Shown: positions 17,881 through 28,620 of the stretch, one piece after another | Position numbering within the stretch: the first letter of the stretch is position 1 | How the letters are laid out: each line of letters begins with the position of its first letter | NCBI GenBank assembly: GCA_018995085.1 | Contig: GCA_018995085.1_3936.1 | Direction: 5' to 3' (one strand) | Length of the DNA stretch: 64,000 bases | Source of the DNA: a phage | Notes under the pieces: generated by a model | Database searches by the model: none | Seen by the model: the letters and a program-made list of their open reading frames with translations, nothing else | What the model was told of the DNA's origin: nothing | Translations under genes and position numbers: made by a program

Positions 17881-18017
17881 TTAGCAGATTACTTAGACGA
17901 CCTTAGCGGGTCTTCCTGTAGGGAGGTGGTCTGTATCTCATGTTTTCCAGAACATGTAAATAATCTGAGAAGGGGCTTTACAGTGTTGAGATAATACGGT
18001 AAGCTTCGAATTATAGT

Positions 18018-18100
18018 ATGGGACGATGTTAAGACTCTAAGGCATGAGCAACGGCTTCCAACACCGTTTCAAAGGGGTTCAACTCCTCCGTCCCATGCCA
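18018..18100 (+). tRNA. tRNA-like gene, probable Trp (anticodon CCA) with enlarged D region
   Basis: acceptor ATGGGAC/GTCCCAT perfect, loop TTCCAAC, 83 nt. Confidence 0.45.
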
Positions 18101-18113
18101 AAGTCTTATTAGG

Positions 18114-18203
18114 GGTAGGTAGCGGCTAATGGTAGCCAAACTGTCTTGAAAACAGTTGCCACTGTAGAGATACGGTGAGGGTTCGACTCCTTTACTTACC
18201 GCC
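18114..18203 (+). tRNA. tRNA-Ser (anticodon UGA), type II
   Basis: anticodon stem ACTGT/ACAGT, loop CTTGAAA, 20-nt variable arm. Confidence 0.7.
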
Positions 18204-18459
18204 TAATAAGATTTACTCCGTCCATGCTTGTTCGCATTGTCGGTTTATCCCTCGTGTATTGTCGTACACACTGATAAAACACCTAGTAGGTGTCACGGAG
18301 AAGAGATAATATCAAGCTCTCTAAAGGTTCTAGTCACCGGATTAAACAAGACTATGCAAAGACCTTTTTAGGTCTTTTTAGAGGGCTTCTAAGGTTATTA
18401 GTCGCTTGTTGTGGAACCTTGTTGCTTAGGTTCTTAGAAGTTCTCTAAAAAGATTTAAT

Positions 18460-18538
18460 GGGAGATTGACGGCAACTTGGTAGACCTATCTCGCTTAGAA
18501 CGAGATGCTTGAGGGTTCGAATCCCTTGTCTCCTACCA
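18460..18538 (+). tRNA. tRNA with UAG anticodon loop (Leu-type anticodon) but short variable arm
   Basis: anticodon stem TCTCG/CGAGA, loop CTTAGAA, D-loop AACTTGGTAG, 4-nt variable region. Confidence 0.5.
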
Positions 18539-18545
18539 AATTAAT

Positions 18546-18621
18546 GCAGGTGTAGCAAAATGGTTATGCGGCTGACTCTTAATCAGTAAGACGATGGGTT
18601 CAATTCCCTCCACCTGTACCA
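18546..18621 (+). tRNA. tRNA-Lys (anticodon CUU)
   Basis: loop CTCTTAA; T-arm region similar to the UUU copy. Confidence 0.55.
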
Positions 18622-18627
18622 AACAAT

Positions 18628-18703
18628 GGGGTCATAGTTTATATGGTTAAAATTCGAGTTTTGCAAACTTGGGAACTGAGTTCAATTCTCAGTGACTCCA
18701 CCA
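18628..18703 (+). tRNA. tRNA-Ala (anticodon UGC)
   Basis: loop TTTGCAA; G3:U70 wobble pair in acceptor stem; T-arm CTGAGTTCAATTCTCAG. Confidence 0.7.
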
Positions 18704-18709
18704 ATTAGT

Positions 18710-18784
18710 GCATCCATAGTTTAAACGGGAAAATTACAGTCTTCCAAACTGAGGTTGAGGGTTCGATTCCCTCTGGATGCTCCA
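18710..18784 (+). tRNA. tRNA-Gly (anticodon UCC)
   Basis: acceptor GCATCCA/TGGATGC perfect, loop CTTCCAA. Confidence 0.7.
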
Positions 18785-18791
18785 AATTAAT

Positions 18792-18867
18792 GCTCCTATC
18801 GTATAATTGGTTATTACGGTTGCCTTGTAAGCAACTTATCAGGGTTCGAGTCCTTGTGGGAGCACCA
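18792..18867 (+). tRNA. tRNA-Thr (anticodon UGU)
   Basis: anticodon stem GTTGC/GCAAC, loop CTTGTAA. Confidence 0.7.
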
Positions 18868-18963
18868 ATTCAGAGGTCAAGTGAAAGACCGCTTTGAGTC
18901 AACTGAAGACCGTAACAAATTCCACGGAGTTGAGTTAGCGGCACAACTCCAGACCTCTTTCAT

Positions 18964-19038
18964 ACTCGCTTAGTTTATATGGTAAAACATCACCCTTACA
19001 AGATGAAGAAAAAGGTTCAAGTCCTTTAGTGAGTACCA
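18964..19038 (+). tRNA. tRNA-Val (anticodon UAC)
   Basis: loop CTTACAA, T-arm AAAGGTTCAAGTCCTTT. Confidence 0.6.
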
Positions 19039-19039
19039 T

Positions 19040-19117
19040 GTTCCAGTATCCCAATTGGCAGAGGATGCAAGCTCAAACCTTGTATTAGTGACGGTTCGAA
19101 TCCGTCTTGGAACACCA
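19040..19117 (+). tRNA. tRNA with CAA anticodon loop (Leu-type anticodon) but short variable arm
   Basis: acceptor GTTCCAG/TTGGAAC, loop CTCAAAC, 6-nt variable region. Confidence 0.5.
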
Positions 19118-19122
19118 ATTTT

Positions 19123-19198
19123 GCAGGATTAGTTCAAATGGAAAGAGCAACAGTCTACGAAGCTGTTAATAGGGGTTCGAATCCCTTATCCTGCGCCA
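19123..19198 (+). tRNA. tRNA-Arg (anticodon ACG)
   Basis: acceptor GCAGGAT/ATCCTGC perfect, loop CTACGAA. Confidence 0.65.
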
Positions 19199-19215
19199 GA
19201 TAAAAAGGTGATACT

Positions 19216-19458
19216 ATGCAAACATTAACAGTAGTTGAACATGAAAACTGTGAGAGTATTGAGTTTGTCAGGGTCATTGGTGTTGAACACCACATTTTCT
19301 TAAAAGTTGGATACTTATGTGACCCCGCTAGAGTAGAAAGATTTATACGTGATTGTTTTGGTGGTAGACATCTGAAGAGTGTTATTTTTGAGACAGTTTT
19401 ACCAGAAGGTTTAGAAACGAATAATAACATTTACCTCCTTACGAGGATTAGACAATGA
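19216..19458 (+). CDS. hypothetical small protein embedded in tRNA array
   Basis: ORF track; SD-like AAAGGTGA upstream. Confidence 0.45.
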   Translation: MQTLTVVEHENCESIEFVRVIGVEHHIFLKVGYLCDPARVERFIRDCFGGRHLKSVIFETVLPEGLETNNNIYLLTRIRQ

Positions 19459-20012
19459 GATACTTAAAGTATGCTTCATGGATTTTCTTAGCTTTGTTAG
19501 AGCTATTTGCAGCAATCTTAGCAGTTATCTTAGCACCTTTCGTAGTTCCATTCTACAGTGAGAAGAAAGGACATCTACCTTTCGGGTTCAGATGGATGGA
19601 AACTTATGACAACCCAATTGATGGTGATGAAGGTCACGTTAAAAGATGGGCTAATATTAGATGGATTGGTAAACTAGGTGTCTACATGCAAAGAGTCGGA
19701 TGGCTCTGGAGAAACAAAGCTTATAACTTCTCTTACCATGTATTAGGGAGAGATGTAAAAGATGTTACTAAGTGGAAAGGTAATATCAACGTAAGTTCTG
19801 ACCCTGAAGATAATCAGACAGGTTATCTCCTAATGTGGAACAGTAATGCTTGGGGATTATTCGCTTTTATCCCATCAATTAAAATCTTTGGTAAACAATT
19901 TTACTGGAGAATTTATATTGGATGGAAACTAAAAAGTGTTGTCCCAGAAGAAAGAGCATTCTCAAGGGAAAGAGTTATGTTGGCATTCTTTATTCATCCA
20001 CTGAGAAAGTAA
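19455..20012 (+). CDS. putative membrane protein embedded in tRNA array
   Basis: N-terminal hydrophobic helix (WIFLALLELFAAILAVILAPFVVPF). Confidence 0.5.
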   Translation: MRYLKYASWIFLALLELFAAILAVILAPFVVPFYSEKKGHLPFGFRWMETYDNPIDGDEGHVKRWANIRWIGKLGVYMQRVGWLWRNKAYNFSYHVLGRDVKDVTKWKGNINVSSDPEDNQTGYLLMWNSNAWGLFAFIPSIKIFGKQFYWRIYIGWKLKSVVPEERAFSRERVMLAFFIHPLRK

Positions 20013-20030
20013 AGATTTAAAGGGGATTAG

Positions 20031-20106
20031 TTTACAAGGTTAAAACCTCGGTCTTTGAAATCGAAGAAGTTGGTTCAATTCCAACATCCCCCGCCAATGC
20101 TCCATT
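20031..20106 (+). tRNA. tRNA-Gln (anticodon UUG)
   Basis: loop CTTTGAA, T-arm GTTGGTTCAATTCCAAC, unpaired 1:72. Confidence 0.6.
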
Positions 20107-20108
20107 AC

Positions 20109-20187
20109 TCCAATTGGCAGAGAGGCCAGACTTAAAATCTGTGTTATGTATCGGTTCGAATCCGATATGGAGTACCAAATTTAGCGG
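20109..20187 (+). tRNA. tRNA with UAA anticodon loop (Leu-type anticodon) but short variable arm
   Basis: loop CTTAAAA, T-arm ATCGGTTCGAATCCGAT, 7-nt variable region. Confidence 0.5.
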
Positions 20188-20192
20188 TATAG

Positions 20193-20268
20193 CATAACTG
20201 GCAATGCAGCAGTCTCTGAAGCTGTCTTATTAAGGTTCAAATCCTTATGCCGCTGCCACTTCTAAGGA
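20193..20268 (+). tRNA. tRNA-Gln (anticodon CUG)
   Basis: loop CTCTGAA, D-stem GCAT/ATGC. Confidence 0.55.
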
Positions 20269-20289
20269 TTCTTACGAGAGTCCTTAAAT

Positions 20290-20365
20290 GTGGCCTTATC
20301 ATAAATGGTAATGACCCATGCTGTGAACATGGTCTATACGGGTTCAAATCCCGTAGGTCACCCCA
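20290..20365 (+). tRNA. tRNA-His (anticodon GUG)
   Basis: anticodon stem CCATG/CATGG, loop CTGTGAA, discriminator C. Confidence 0.65.
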
Positions 20366-20370
20366 ATTTA

Positions 20371-20445
20371 TAGTCCAAGTAGCTTATATGGTTAAAGCGC
20401 GTGTCTGAAAAACATGAGAAGAGGGTTCAAATCCCACTGGACTAC
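20371..20445 (+). tRNA. tRNA-Phe (anticodon GAA)
   Basis: acceptor TAGTCCA/TGGACTA perfect, loop CTGAAAA. Confidence 0.65.
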
Positions 20446-20463
20446 CAATTTCAAAGGTGCTTA

Positions 20464-21198
20464 ATGAAAGAGATGACAGAACAAGGTAAGGAGATTTTTA
20501 ATCTCTTAAAAACTGGTAAAGGGTTTTCTAACCCCCTTATTACTGGTGCAGCAGTTCTCGGTGGAACCGTAGCTGCCTCCACATCACTTGTAAGCTCTAT
20601 TAGTTCTGTATCAGACCCTACAGTAAAAGATAAGCTTGTTGCTGCTGGACTTACAACAGTTCTGCTTAACAGCTTTACCACGAGTCTGACAAGCACTACA
20701 TCAACTACCAAAACACTGACAGATTACGGTCAAAAGTCCATTGATGAGTTTTCATCACGTATGCAGGTAGCAAAAGGTTATTCTAATGTTATGGGTGCAG
20801 CAGGTGAACAAGTTGGCTGTACACCATTTAGTGGTATTATGGGTGTTGCTACAGAGTATGGTCAAAAAGCTATTGATACGATTAACAGTGCACTAGACGG
20901 TGTTAATGATGTATTAAGTGATTTACAAGACGCTATTGACAAAGGTCTTGATACTATTTCTGATTTAGCTAACCAAGCTGTTAGTAAGATTAATGAAGGT
21001 ATCTCGAAGATTACAGCTTATGCAGATGAAGTTGTGCAGATGATTGAAGAAGAAGCTGCCCTTATTGCAGAGTACCTTAAAACGAATATCAATGGGTTCT
21101 TAGCAGGTATCTTACCAGACTGGTTTGATGATGCTTGTAAAACTGGTGTAATTGACACTATTGCAACACCAGAAATGAAGAACGCATTACAGAAATAA
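20464..21198 (+). CDS. hypothetical Ser/Thr-rich protein
   Basis: ORF with internal ATG at 20464; the track start at 20401 lies inside tRNA-Phe. Confidence 0.55.
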   Translation: MKEMTEQGKEIFNLLKTGKGFSNPLITGAAVLGGTVAASTSLVSSISSVSDPTVKDKLVAAGLTTVLLNSFTTSLTSTTSTTKTLTDYGQKSIDEFSSRMQVAKGYSNVMGAAGEQVGCTPFSGIMGVATEYGQKAIDTINSALDGVNDVLSDLQDAIDKGLDTISDLANQAVSKINEGISKITAYADEVVQMIEEEAALIAEYLKTNINGFLAGILPDWFDDACKTGVIDTIATPEMKNALQK

Positions 21199-21199
21199 T

Positions 21200-21292
21200 G
21201 GAAGATTAACCCTAAAAGGTAAGGGAGCAGTTTGCTAAACTGCCAGTAGCTGAGAAATCGGTGTACCAGTTCAAGTCTGGTATCTTCCTCCA
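21200..21292 (+). tRNA. tRNA-Ser (anticodon GCU), type II
   Basis: acceptor GGAAGAT/ATCTTCC perfect, loop TTGCTAA, long variable arm. Confidence 0.7.
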
Positions 21293-21296
21293 ATTT

Positions 21297-21372
21297 GAAT
21301 CCGTGACAGAAATGGCTATGTGCCTGTCTGCAAAACAGGTTTATAAGGGTTCGAGTCCCTTCGGATTCTCCA
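21297..21372 (+). tRNA. tRNA-Cys (anticodon GCA)
   Basis: acceptor GAATCCG/CGGATTC perfect, anticodon stem CCTGT/ACAGG, loop CTGCAAA. Confidence 0.7.
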
Positions 21373-21534: not shown

Positions 21535-21558
21535 GACGGTCTCTGTACCGTCTTTTTT
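21535..21558 (+). terminator. Rho-independent terminator (GACGGT-ctctgt-ACCGTC + TTTTTT)
   Basis: perfect 6-bp stem plus T6. Confidence 0.65.
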
Positions 21559-27513: not shown

Positions 27514-28620
27514 ATGTTGACTAATTCTGAAAAAAGCAGATTTTTCCTTGCTGACCTGACTGGTGAAGTCCAGTCTATCCCAAATACTTATGGGTATATT
27601 TCCAACTTAGGTCTGTTCCGTTCAGCACCAATCACCCAGACGACTTTCCTTATGGACTTGACTGATTGGGATGTTAGCTTGCTTGATGCGGTAGACCGTG
27701 ATAGCCGTAAAGCAGAGACTAGCGCACCTGAGCGTGTTCGTCAAATCAGCTTCCCAATGATGTACTTCAAAGAAGTTGAAAGCATTACTCCTGATGAAAT
27801 TCAGGGTGTACGTCAGCCAGGCACTGCAAACGAACTGACTACTGAAGCTGTAGTACGTGCTAAGAAGCTGATGAAGATTCGTACCAAGTTCGATATTACT
27901 CGTGAGTTCCTGTTTATGCAAGCTCTGAAGGGTAAAGTTGTTGATGCTCGTGGTACTCTGTATGCTGACCTGTACAAGCAGTTCGACGTTGAGAAGAAGA
28001 CTGTTTACTTCGACCTTGACAACCCTAATGCTGACATCGACGCTTCTATTGAAGAACTGCGTATGCACATGGAAGACGAAGCTAAGACTGGCACTGTAAT
28101 CAACGGTGAAGAAATTCACGTAGTTGTTGACCGTGTATTCTTCAGCAAACTGGTTAAGCATCCTAAGATTCGTGACGCTTATCTTGCACAGCAGACTCCA
28201 CTGGCTTGGCAACAGATTACTGGTTCTCTGAGAACTGGTGGTACTGACGGAGTTCAGGCTCACATGAACACCTTCTACTACGGTGGTGTTAAGTTTGTCC
28301 AGTACAACGGTAAGTTCAAAGACAAGCGTGGTAAGGTTCACACTCTGGTGAGCATTGATAGTGTAGCAGCAACTGTTGGTGTTGGTCATGCCTTCCCTAA
28401 CGTATCTATGCTTGGTGAAGCTAACAACATCTTCGAAGTTGCATATGGTCCATGTCCTAAGATGGGTTATGCAAATACACTTGGTCAGGAACTGTACGTA
28501 TTCGAATACGAAAAAGACCGTGACGAAGGTATTGACTTCGAAGCTCACTCTTACATGCTGCCATACTGCACACGTCCTCAGTTGCTGGTAGACGTTCGTT
28601 CTGACGCTAAACCAGACTAA
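27514..28620 (+). CDS. major capsid protein
   Basis: 368 aa, position after protease/scaffold; lambda E-like gene order; SD GGAGA upstream. Confidence 0.65.
   Translation: MLTNSEKSRFFLADLTGEVQSIPNTYGYISNLGLFRSAPITQTTFLMDLTDWDVSLLDAVDRDSRKAETSAPERVRQISFPMMYFKEVESITPDEIQGVRQPGTANELTTEAVVRAKKLMKIRTKFDITREFLFMQALKGKVVDARGTLYADLYKQFDVEKKTVYFDLDNPNADIDASIEELRMHMEDEAKTGTVINGEEIHVVVDRVFFSKLVKHPKIRDAYLAQQTPLAWQQITGSLRTGGTDGVQAHMNTFYYGGVKFVQYNGKFKDKRGKVHTLVSIDSVAATVGVGHAFPNVSMLGEANNIFEVAYGPCPKMGYANTLGQELYVFEYEKDRDEGIDFEAHSYMLPYCTRPQLLVDVRSDAKPD

Follow-up and report, generated by a model that had tools for sequence, protein, structure and literature searches.

Short-arm tRNALeu genes in the tRNA array of a Felix O1-like phage are probably functional type I leucine tRNAs

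Which amino acid is carried by a transfer RNA (tRNA) that has a leucine anticodon but not the long variable arm of tRNALeu from Escherichia coli? The question is raised by three genes, designated here Leu-UAG, Leu-CAA, and Leu-UAA, in the tRNA array of a phage sequence of 64,000 nucleotides (GenBank assembly GCA_018995085.1, contig GCA_018995085.1_3936.1), the whole of which is referred to below as the window. An initial annotation, made from the letters of the sequence, found only 4-7 nt between the anticodon stem and the T arm of these genes. It proposed that they are either leucine tRNAs of unusual architecture or leucine anticodons on another isotype body, which could recode leucine codons during infection. 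The observation of short-arm Leu tRNA genes is confirmed here. In this report, we argue from the nucleotides that these genes retain that they are probably functional type I leucine tRNAs, charged by the leucyl-tRNA synthetase (LeuRS) of the host.

The genes were identified by using ARAGORN and, independently, the tRNA covariance model of Rfam (RF00005), for which the gathering score is 29 bits. All three pass this threshold, and their coordinates are collected with those of the other features of the region in Table 1. The initial annotation had placed the first two genes exactly; the third, given as 20109-20187, had been set 10 nt too far to the right. In the Rfam alignment the anticodon loops are CUUAGAA, CUCAAAC, and CUUAAAA, which correspond to UAG, CAA, and UAA. 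These are the anticodons assigned by ARAGORN and by the initial annotation, and no alternative anticodon position was returned by the software. Because ARAGORN and Rfam concur, the anticodon positions are not the artefact of a single program. Each gene has a 7-bp acceptor stem, a 7-nt anticodon loop with U33, a T arm of the form GTTCRANYC, and a sufficient score, with Leu-UAG being marginal. Single-sequence minimum free energy folding was uninformative for tRNAs, with z values of -0.5 to -1.8 for the three Leu genes and -0.3 for the canonical tRNATyr of the same array.

Table 1. Positions of the tRNA genes and neighboring features within the window.
Feature	Position	Strand	Length	Basis and remarks
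Open reading frame (ORF) with DUF2828 and DUF7788 domains	14215-15630	+	471 aa	directly upstream of the tRNA array
Candidate array promoters	15649-15769 (sites 15649, 15740)	+		two sigma-70-like matches with TTGACA first hexamers; consensus match
tRNA array	15796-21372	+		25 tRNAs with small ORFs interspersed; ARAGORN
tRNA with CAU anticodon	16049-16125	+		ARAGORN
tRNA-Tyr(GUA)	16355-16442	+	88 nt	long variable arm; internal control
Partial tRNA match	16697-16747	+		between Asp and Lys tRNAs; RF00005 22 bits, model positions 7-64, E = 0.48
tRNA with CAU anticodon	17035-17111	+		
Promoter-like site inside the array	17204			consensus match only
tRNA-like gene	17437-17518	+		RF00005 31.7 bits; missed by ARAGORN
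tRNA-Ser(UGA)	18114-18203	+	90 nt	long variable arm; internal type II control
tRNA-Leu(UAG)	18460-18538	+	79 nt including encoded CCA	ARAGORN; RF00005 30.5 bits
tRNA-Leu(CAA)	19040-19117	+	78 nt including encoded CCA	ARAGORN; RF00005 44.0 bits
tRNA-Leu(UAA)	20099-20177	+	79 nt including encoded CCA	ARAGORN; RF00005 47.5 bits
tRNA-Ser(GCU)	21200-21292	+	93 nt	long variable arm; internal control
Candidate transcript end	21535-21552	+		terminator-like hairpin with a T run behind it, downstream of the last tRNA; consensus match
Major capsid gene	27514-28620	+		

When the genes are cut at fixed landmarks (acceptor stem, anticodon position, and T arm), the variable regions are found to be UGCUU in Leu-UAG (5 nt), AUUAGU in Leu-CAA (6 nt), and GUUAUGU in Leu-UAA (7 nt), within the range first estimated. 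The variable regions of the five tRNALeu species of E. coli K-12 are 13-15 nt in genes of 85-87 nt. None of the three phage genes has the stem-loop variable arm, longer than about 10 nt, of a class II tRNA. In each, a leucine anticodon is joined to a variable loop that is short and unpaired, spans at least 5 nt, and contains nucleotide 48; this is the architecture of a type I tRNALeu. The tRNATyr and the two tRNASer of the same array have variable arms of 15 nt and about 19-21 nt, respectively, and the two tRNASer are thus type II, as had been recognized at the outset. No long-arm tRNALeu, and no Leu tRNA besides these three, was found by ARAGORN in the window or by a permissive Rfam scan in the array, in agreement with the initial annotation, which had seen no canonical tRNALeu in the array.

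The LeuRS from E. coli requires A73, A15-U48, G18G19, A20a, and the D/T-loop contacts, and requires neither the anticodon nor the long arm; variants of E. coli tRNALeu that lack the long arm and the anticodon arm remain active (PMC9976931). The initial annotation had suggested that such identity elements be inspected. All three phage tRNAs have A73, U8, U48 as the last base of the variable region, a UUCGAAU T loop (U54/A58), and an encoded CCA. The D arms of Leu-CAA (UCC-C-AAUUGGCAG-A-GGA) and Leu-UAA (CUC-C-AAUUGGCAG-A-GAG) are each 17 nt long, with a 3-bp stem, an unpaired 13.22, and the series A14 A15 U16 U17 G18 G19 Y20 A20a G21 A22. This layout is exactly that of the E. coli tRNALeu D arm (GCG-G-AAUUGGUAG-A-CGC) in five of five species, and both phage tRNAs carry A15-U48, G18G19, A20a, and U54-A58 at the E. 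coli positions. The D arm of Leu-UAG is irregular. It is 19 nt long with only two clean G-C pairs, and its D loop in the window is one C longer than in most relatives. In Leu-UAG, U48, the GG, an A that follows GGU, and U54/A58 are present; the two extra D-loop nucleotides leave the register of A14/A15 uncertain.

The anticodons of the three phage genes are those of leuW (UAG), leuX (CAA), and leuZ (UAA) among the E. coli leucine tRNAs, which also include leuT (CAG) and leuU (GAG). Beyond the anticodons, the likeness comprises A73, U8, A14, A15-U48, G18G19, A20a, the 17-nt D arm, and the unpaired 13.22. G1.U72 is found in Leu-UAG and Leu-UAA, as in leuZ and leuU, and A36A37A38 in Leu-UAA, as in leuZ. 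The differences are the 5-7 unpaired nucleotides in place of a variable stem-loop, an identity of 0.52-0.54 over the tRNA body, a T loop of UUCGAAU where E. coli mostly has UUCAAGU, and A37 in Leu-UAG where leuW has G37. The elements that would direct another synthetase were also sought. Neither G3:U70 (for alanine) nor a long arm with G73 (for serine) is carried by any of the three tRNAs, in which the 3:70 pairs are G-C, U-A, and U-A. To our knowledge, alanine and serine are the only identities besides leucine that ignore the anticodon. The remaining synthetases read anticodon bases, which these tRNAs do not have.

The short-arm form is not confined to this phage. BLAST searches with the three genes returned distant matches that lack an arm insertion, several of which were confirmed by ARAGORN or by the annotation of the record. 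In the T5-like phage TrudiRoth, two Leu tRNAs of 77 nt occur along with Ser tRNAs of 94-95 nt and a Tyr tRNA of 91 nt, and a homolog is also present in BF23 ("tRNAL1"), pork29, and many other T5-like phages. The arrays of T5-like coliphages thus resemble that of the window in having short Leu tRNAs together with long Ser and Tyr tRNAs. In the Enterococcus phage EFGrKN, a Leu tRNA of 74 nt lies beside a Ser tRNA of 87 nt and has a D arm identical to that of Leu-CAA from the window. Leu tRNAs of 74-78 nt were found in Acinetobacter phage phiAbaA1, Aeromonas phage AhP_Mru1, Lactobacillus phage LpeD, Erwinia phage Hena2, and Pectobacterium phage Wc4-1. The tRNALeu(UAA) of T4 is likewise encoded in a phage tRNA cluster and serves UUA/UUG, but it is 87 nt in length and of type II, having a long arm.

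A broader sample was obtained by scanning IMG/VR with a generic T-arm/A73/CCA pattern, which gave 109 viral loci with 681 tRNAs. In this pattern-seeded sample, short forms account for 36 of the 91 Leu tRNAs, 0 of the 37 Ser tRNAs, and 1 of the 19 Tyr tRNAs. When loci with the seed pattern inside a Leu tRNA are left out, 12 of 42 Leu tRNAs are short versus 0 of 39 for Ser and Tyr together (p = 2e-4). The length of the variable region is bimodal, at either 4-7 nt or 9-25 nt, and nine mixed loci have short and long Leu tRNAs side by side. Once the variable region and anticodon are masked, 33 of 40 short genes and 9 of 57 long ones have a short gene as their nearest neighbor in another locus. The three genes of the window are 0.71-0.82 identical to other short Leu tRNAs, compared with 0.52-0.54 to the type II tRNALeu of E. 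coli. This mutual resemblance suggests that the short arm belongs to one or a few old lineages that move between phages, and did not arise by recent deletions in host genes.

An attempt to assign isotypes by raw identity to 30 E. coli K-12 tRNAs, with the variable region and anticodon left out, was abandoned when its control failed: the nearest E. coli tRNA was of the same isotype for only 3 of the 25 phage tRNAs, and the method was therefore powerless. Identity-element signatures were used instead. Of the short viral Leu tRNAs, 35 of 37 have the combination of A73, A15, U48, and an unpaired 13.22, as do all five E. coli tRNALeu species; among the other class I tRNAs of those viral loci, it is present in just 13 of 545. 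Taken singly over 40 short viral Leu tRNAs, A73 is found in 40, A15 in 38, a final U of the variable region in 39, and a 3-bp D stem with an unpaired 13.22 in 36. These signatures indicate that the short viral forms are leucine tRNAs and not class I bodies that were given a new anticodon.

The codons served by these tRNAs were examined from two sides. The window has a GC content of 38.8%, and among the leucine codons of 16 long ORFs, 26.7% are UUA, 16.7% UUG, and 11.1% CUA, which add up to 54.5%, with CUG at 13.1%. On the host side, CUG accounts for about half of the leucines of E. coli and CUA for about 4%. From this comparison of phage and host usage, which the initial annotation had recommended, the codons covered by the three anticodons are enriched in the phage, and the host serves them poorly. 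The meaning of the codons was assessed in the terminase large subunit, which was aligned with 96 homologs of no more than 58% identity (one protein, 20 codons). The mean leucine content of the aligned columns is 56% for CUA (n = 6), 47% for UUA (n = 9), and 38% for UUG (n = 5), and the mean content of L, I, V, M, or F is 92%, 74%, and 72%, respectively. The comparison columns have 54% leucine for CUU and 4% for positions that are not leucine. The alignment thus indicates that UUA, UUG, and CUA mean leucine in this phage. In the major capsid gene, CUG is used for 16 of the 28 leucine codons versus 13% in the pooled long ORFs, and this gene looks to be tuned to the tRNAs of the host rather than to the phage's own.

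Over almost all of its length, the tRNA region matches that of Felix O1, wV8, Alf5, and some 200 further Felixounavirus genomes (from Escherichia, Salmonella, Shigella, and Citrobacter) at 94-97% identity, and the gene order of the array is that of the Felix O1-like phages. By these measures the source of the window is a Felixounavirus. All three genes are already labeled tRNA-Leu in public records. Leu-CAA and Leu-UAA are nearly invariant (at least 95% identity in about 250 phage records each), and the 5.7 kb around the Leu genes is 80-99% identical among relatives. The Leu-UAG locus is polymorphic within Felixounavirus, with allele classes of about 100%, 94%, and 85% identity, and the anticodon stem of the 85% allele differs by three compensatory pair swaps and one U.U. 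Although this divergent allele is labeled tRNA-OTHER in a few records, it is called Leu(UAG) by ARAGORN. The idea that the label tRNA-OTHER generally denotes the Leu genes was rejected: in FSL SP-012 it marks two Ser tRNAs and a His tRNA, and the Leu genes are annotated as tRNA-Leu. A tRNA-Thr label under one match to the divergent allele proved to be that of an overlapping neighbor gene only.

The Leu(UAG) gene of TrudiRoth is 75% identical to Leu-UAG of the window; the D arms of both begin with UUGACGG, and their T arms are identical. The T5-like gene differs in having a regular 3-bp D stem (ACG/CGU) and a G13...A22 layout; relative to it, the Felix-type gene has an inserted nucleotide (two in the allele of the window) and a C.C mismatch. 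This homology suggests an exchange of tRNA genes or arms across phage families. Covariation was measured over 20 diverse viral short Leu tRNAs. The pairing of the short-arm cloverleaf is 97.8% of all cells, a percentage that is partly built in by the selection of cloverleaves in ARAGORN; the compensatory changes are not built in, and 141 cells changed on both sides, with covariation in 18 of the 20 pairs. None of 500 shuffles equaled this covariation. Because they are conserved in phage genomes and the covariation is strong, the Leu genes are not chance matches.

Short-arm leucine tRNAs also have cellular counterparts. A scan for the 15-nt D-arm core of Leu-CAA, CCCAATTGGCAGAGG, in which each species was represented by a single genome, gave 120 loci, and all 100 of the tRNAs that carry this core are short tRNALeu, with the anticodons UAA (57), CAA (23), UAG (11), GAG (5), and CAG (4). 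They come mostly from Actinobacteria (Nocardia, Gordonia, Rhodococcus, Mycobacterium, Corynebacterium, and Arthrobacter) and from some other phyla, and 80 of the 100 are the sole tRNA within 8 kb of the locus. A few lie in large arrays, such as a Cylindrospermum locus with 26 tRNAs. The complete D arm of Leu-CAA is present in some of the actinobacterial chromosomal type I tRNALeu. The tRNALeu(CAA) of Streptomyces coelicolor is a documented type I tRNA (PMC6614811), only three tRNALeu of Mycobacterium tuberculosis are implicitly stated to have long loops (PMC11541572), and a one-sentence remark notes a short-loop tRNALeu in a mycobacterial tRNA cluster (PMC6582537). Given these cellular examples, the architecture is a known, little-noticed kind, of which the phage genes are additional members; no account of short-arm tRNALeu from phages was found in a literature search. 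The premise of the initial annotation that bacterial tRNALeu is type II holds for E. coli, but it is too strong as a general rule; given S. coelicolor, the other Actinobacteria, and about a third of the sampled viral genes, it is a rule with a large exception.

Several of these systems are instructive comparisons. The actinobacterial type I tRNALeu, including that of S. coelicolor, share with the phage genes a variable loop of about 5 nt, A73, and the D-arm core found in Leu-CAA. The Streptomyces tRNA has C48 where the phage tRNAs have U48, and the Streptomyces LeuRS has a specialized leucine-specific domain and does not use A73 (PMC6614811), whereas the phage tRNAs would depend on a LeuRS of the E. 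coli type. The animal mitochondrial tRNALeu(UUR) is a type I tRNA that has no long arm and owes its identity to A73 and A14 (PMC9976931); it is organellar, structurally fragile, and charged by its own LeuRS, and the likeness considered here is one of architecture. A further comparison is an engineered minimal tRNALeu from E. coli that lacks the variable and anticodon arms and is both charged and edited by E. coli LeuRS, provided that A73 and the D/T-loop contacts are kept (Larkin et al. 2002, as summarized in PMC9976931). The phage tRNAs differ from such constructs in being natural, in keeping the anticodon arm, and in having diverged in all stems.

Our proposal for the three genes is as follows. 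They would be transcribed together with the rest of the array, and the transcripts would be trimmed by host enzymes, with the CCA already encoded. The host LeuRS would then charge the tRNAs with leucine by reading A73 and the corner formed by the D and T loops together with the variable region (A15-U48, G18G19, A20a, and U54-A58). Decoding would be supplemented for UUA/UUG by Leu-UAA and Leu-CAA, and for CUA/CUG, and possibly CUU, by Leu-UAG. Because the E. coli LeuRS ignores the anticodon and the long arm, loss of the arm can be tolerated for leucine and not for serine or tyrosine. The simplest reading of the missing arm is that it is dispensable for LeuRS, so that a short lineage can persist. 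Of the two possibilities raised by the initial annotation, leucine tRNAs of unusual architecture are thus favored, since the identity set of E. coli LeuRS is kept apart from the arm and the codons behave as leucine.

Several facts weigh against this proposal. In the one published trial with a type I tRNALeu, the E. coli LeuRS did not leucylate a transcript of the type I tRNALeu(CAA) from S. coelicolor, it has been described as charging type II tRNAs only, and crystal contacts were cited between its C-terminal domain and nucleotides 47f-47i of the arm (PMC6614811). The C48 of the S. coelicolor tRNA may explain the failure. Within the phage genes, Leu-UAG scores barely above the Rfam threshold (30.5 versus 29 bits) and its D arm is degenerate, and a C27.U43 mismatch is present in Leu-UAA. 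The CUG bias of the major capsid gene would make the most highly expressed late gene independent of the phage Leu tRNAs, and the IMG/VR sample is not a census.

It is conceivable that the three tRNAs are charged with an amino acid other than leucine, so that leucine codons are partly recoded in infection. Only the atypical architecture speaks for this, together with the irregular D arm of Leu-UAG, which could weaken recognition by LeuRS. We consider recoding extremely improbable, given the A73 and leucine-type corner, the lack of G3:U70 for the alanyl-tRNA synthetase and of a long arm or G73 for the seryl-tRNA synthetase, and the anticodon requirements of the other synthetases. UUA, UUG, and CUA, moreover, resemble CUU in aligning with columns that are rich in leucine among distant terminase homologs, and the genes are nearly invariant over hundreds of phages that infect hosts with standard decoding. 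The notion of leucine anticodons on another isotype body is not supported by these observations. It is less remote, but still highly unlikely, that the tRNAs are charged poorly or not at all in enteric hosts and are kept as decoys for defenses that target tRNAs, as elements for the processing or spacing of the array, or as hitch-hikers that came from a lineage whose LeuRS is competent for type I tRNAs. The failure of E. coli LeuRS with one type I tRNALeu (PMC6614811) would fit such a role, as would the polymorphism and weak D arm of Leu-UAG, and the exact occurrence of CCCAATTGGCAGAGG in actinobacterial chromosomal type I tRNALeu suggests a foreign origin. However, Leu-CAA and Leu-UAA are nearly invariant inside a region that varies between 80 and 99% identity, stem pairing is maintained by compensatory changes, all of the E. 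coli identity nucleotides are retained, including U48, and the anticodons fit the codons enriched in the phage.

The loss of the arm may instead be adaptive, either as an escape from host toxins or nucleases that grip the arm or because the phage attacks the host tRNALeu while sparing its own. The short Leu tRNAs do form a coherent lineage and not a scatter of recent deletions, as the nearest-neighbor counts and body identities given above attest, and the short form persists in phages whose hosts have type II tRNALeu only. There is also a precedent for recognition of the arm in the nucleotidyltransferase toxin MenT3, which needs the long variable loop on tRNASer and accepts tRNALeu if the orientation of the loop is altered (PMC11541572). 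In a preprint, the abortive-infection family toxin AbiEii is described as sharing the DUF1814 superfamily with the MenT toxins (10.64898/2026.01.19.700257). We nevertheless regard an adaptive loss as unlikely. No toxin is known that acts against the tRNALeu arm in Enterobacteria, the Ser and Tyr tRNAs of the same arrays keep their arms, though their synthetases need them, T4 retains a type II tRNALeu, and short and long Leu tRNAs are mixed in many viral arrays. The short form is also chromosomal in many Actinobacteria, and an advantage specific to phages is therefore not required. More doubtful still is a fuller version, in which a mobile short-arm lineage that makes up about a third of viral tRNALeu is kept for its invisibility to toxins or nucleases or for the selective disabling of host tRNALeu. 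If it were true, type I tRNALeu found in nature would be charged by an E. coli-type LeuRS, in conflict with the published description of that enzyme as charging type II only.

Other features of the array deserve mention. The tRNA-like gene at 17437-17518 has the acceptor stem CGGGGCG/CGCCUCG with G3.U70, followed by A73 and an encoded CCA. G3:U70 with A73 is an alanine identity mark. The gene has 4 nt instead of a D arm, a variable region of about 22 nt, a normal T arm, and the anticodon arm GCGGU-CUUCUAA-ACCGC, which gives UCU under the canonical reading. Its GC content is 59% versus 39% for the genome. It is found at 82-100% identity in 263 phage records from unrelated groups, including Felix O1-like phages, genomes of about 146-150 kb, the 348-kb jumbo phages 121Q/PBECO4/7t3, and Klebsiella and Vibrio phages, where it is annotated as tRNA-OTHER, tRNA-TERM, tRNA-Leu, or not at all. 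We considered whether this gene and weak upstream matches to the transfer-messenger RNA (tmRNA) model form a phage tmRNA, and rejected the idea: no tmRNA is called by ARAGORN, and the closure of the acceptor stem is local. Both tRNAs with CAU anticodons have U73, compared with A73 in the E. coli Met tRNAs examined, and the one at 16049-16125 gave no Rfam tRNA match even at E <= 1, though ARAGORN calls it a tRNA. The tRNASer(GCU) has U73 versus G73 in the two E. coli tRNASer that were compared. The partial match that lies between the tRNAs for Asp and Lys includes a hairpin resembling a T arm and may represent a tRNA gene in decay. A PDB sequence search with the ORF upstream of the array returned no significant match to solved structures.

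The phage arrays constitute a natural experiment on tRNA identity, in which the variable arm has been dropped from leucine tRNAs, never from serine tRNAs, and almost never from tyrosine tRNAs. This pattern is what the identity rules of E. coli predict. For annotation, a short tRNA with a leucine anticodon in a phage or actinobacterial genome is to be taken as a tRNALeu and not as an artefact or a signal of recoding. There remains a conflict between the description of the E. coli LeuRS as specific for type II tRNAs and the existence of Felix O1-like and T5-like coliphages whose only leucine tRNAs are short-armed and highly conserved. If the host LeuRS does not charge the phage tRNAs, the genes must serve another role. 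If it does, the type II-only rule needs revision, and the phage tRNAs would offer compact natural scaffolds for engineering.

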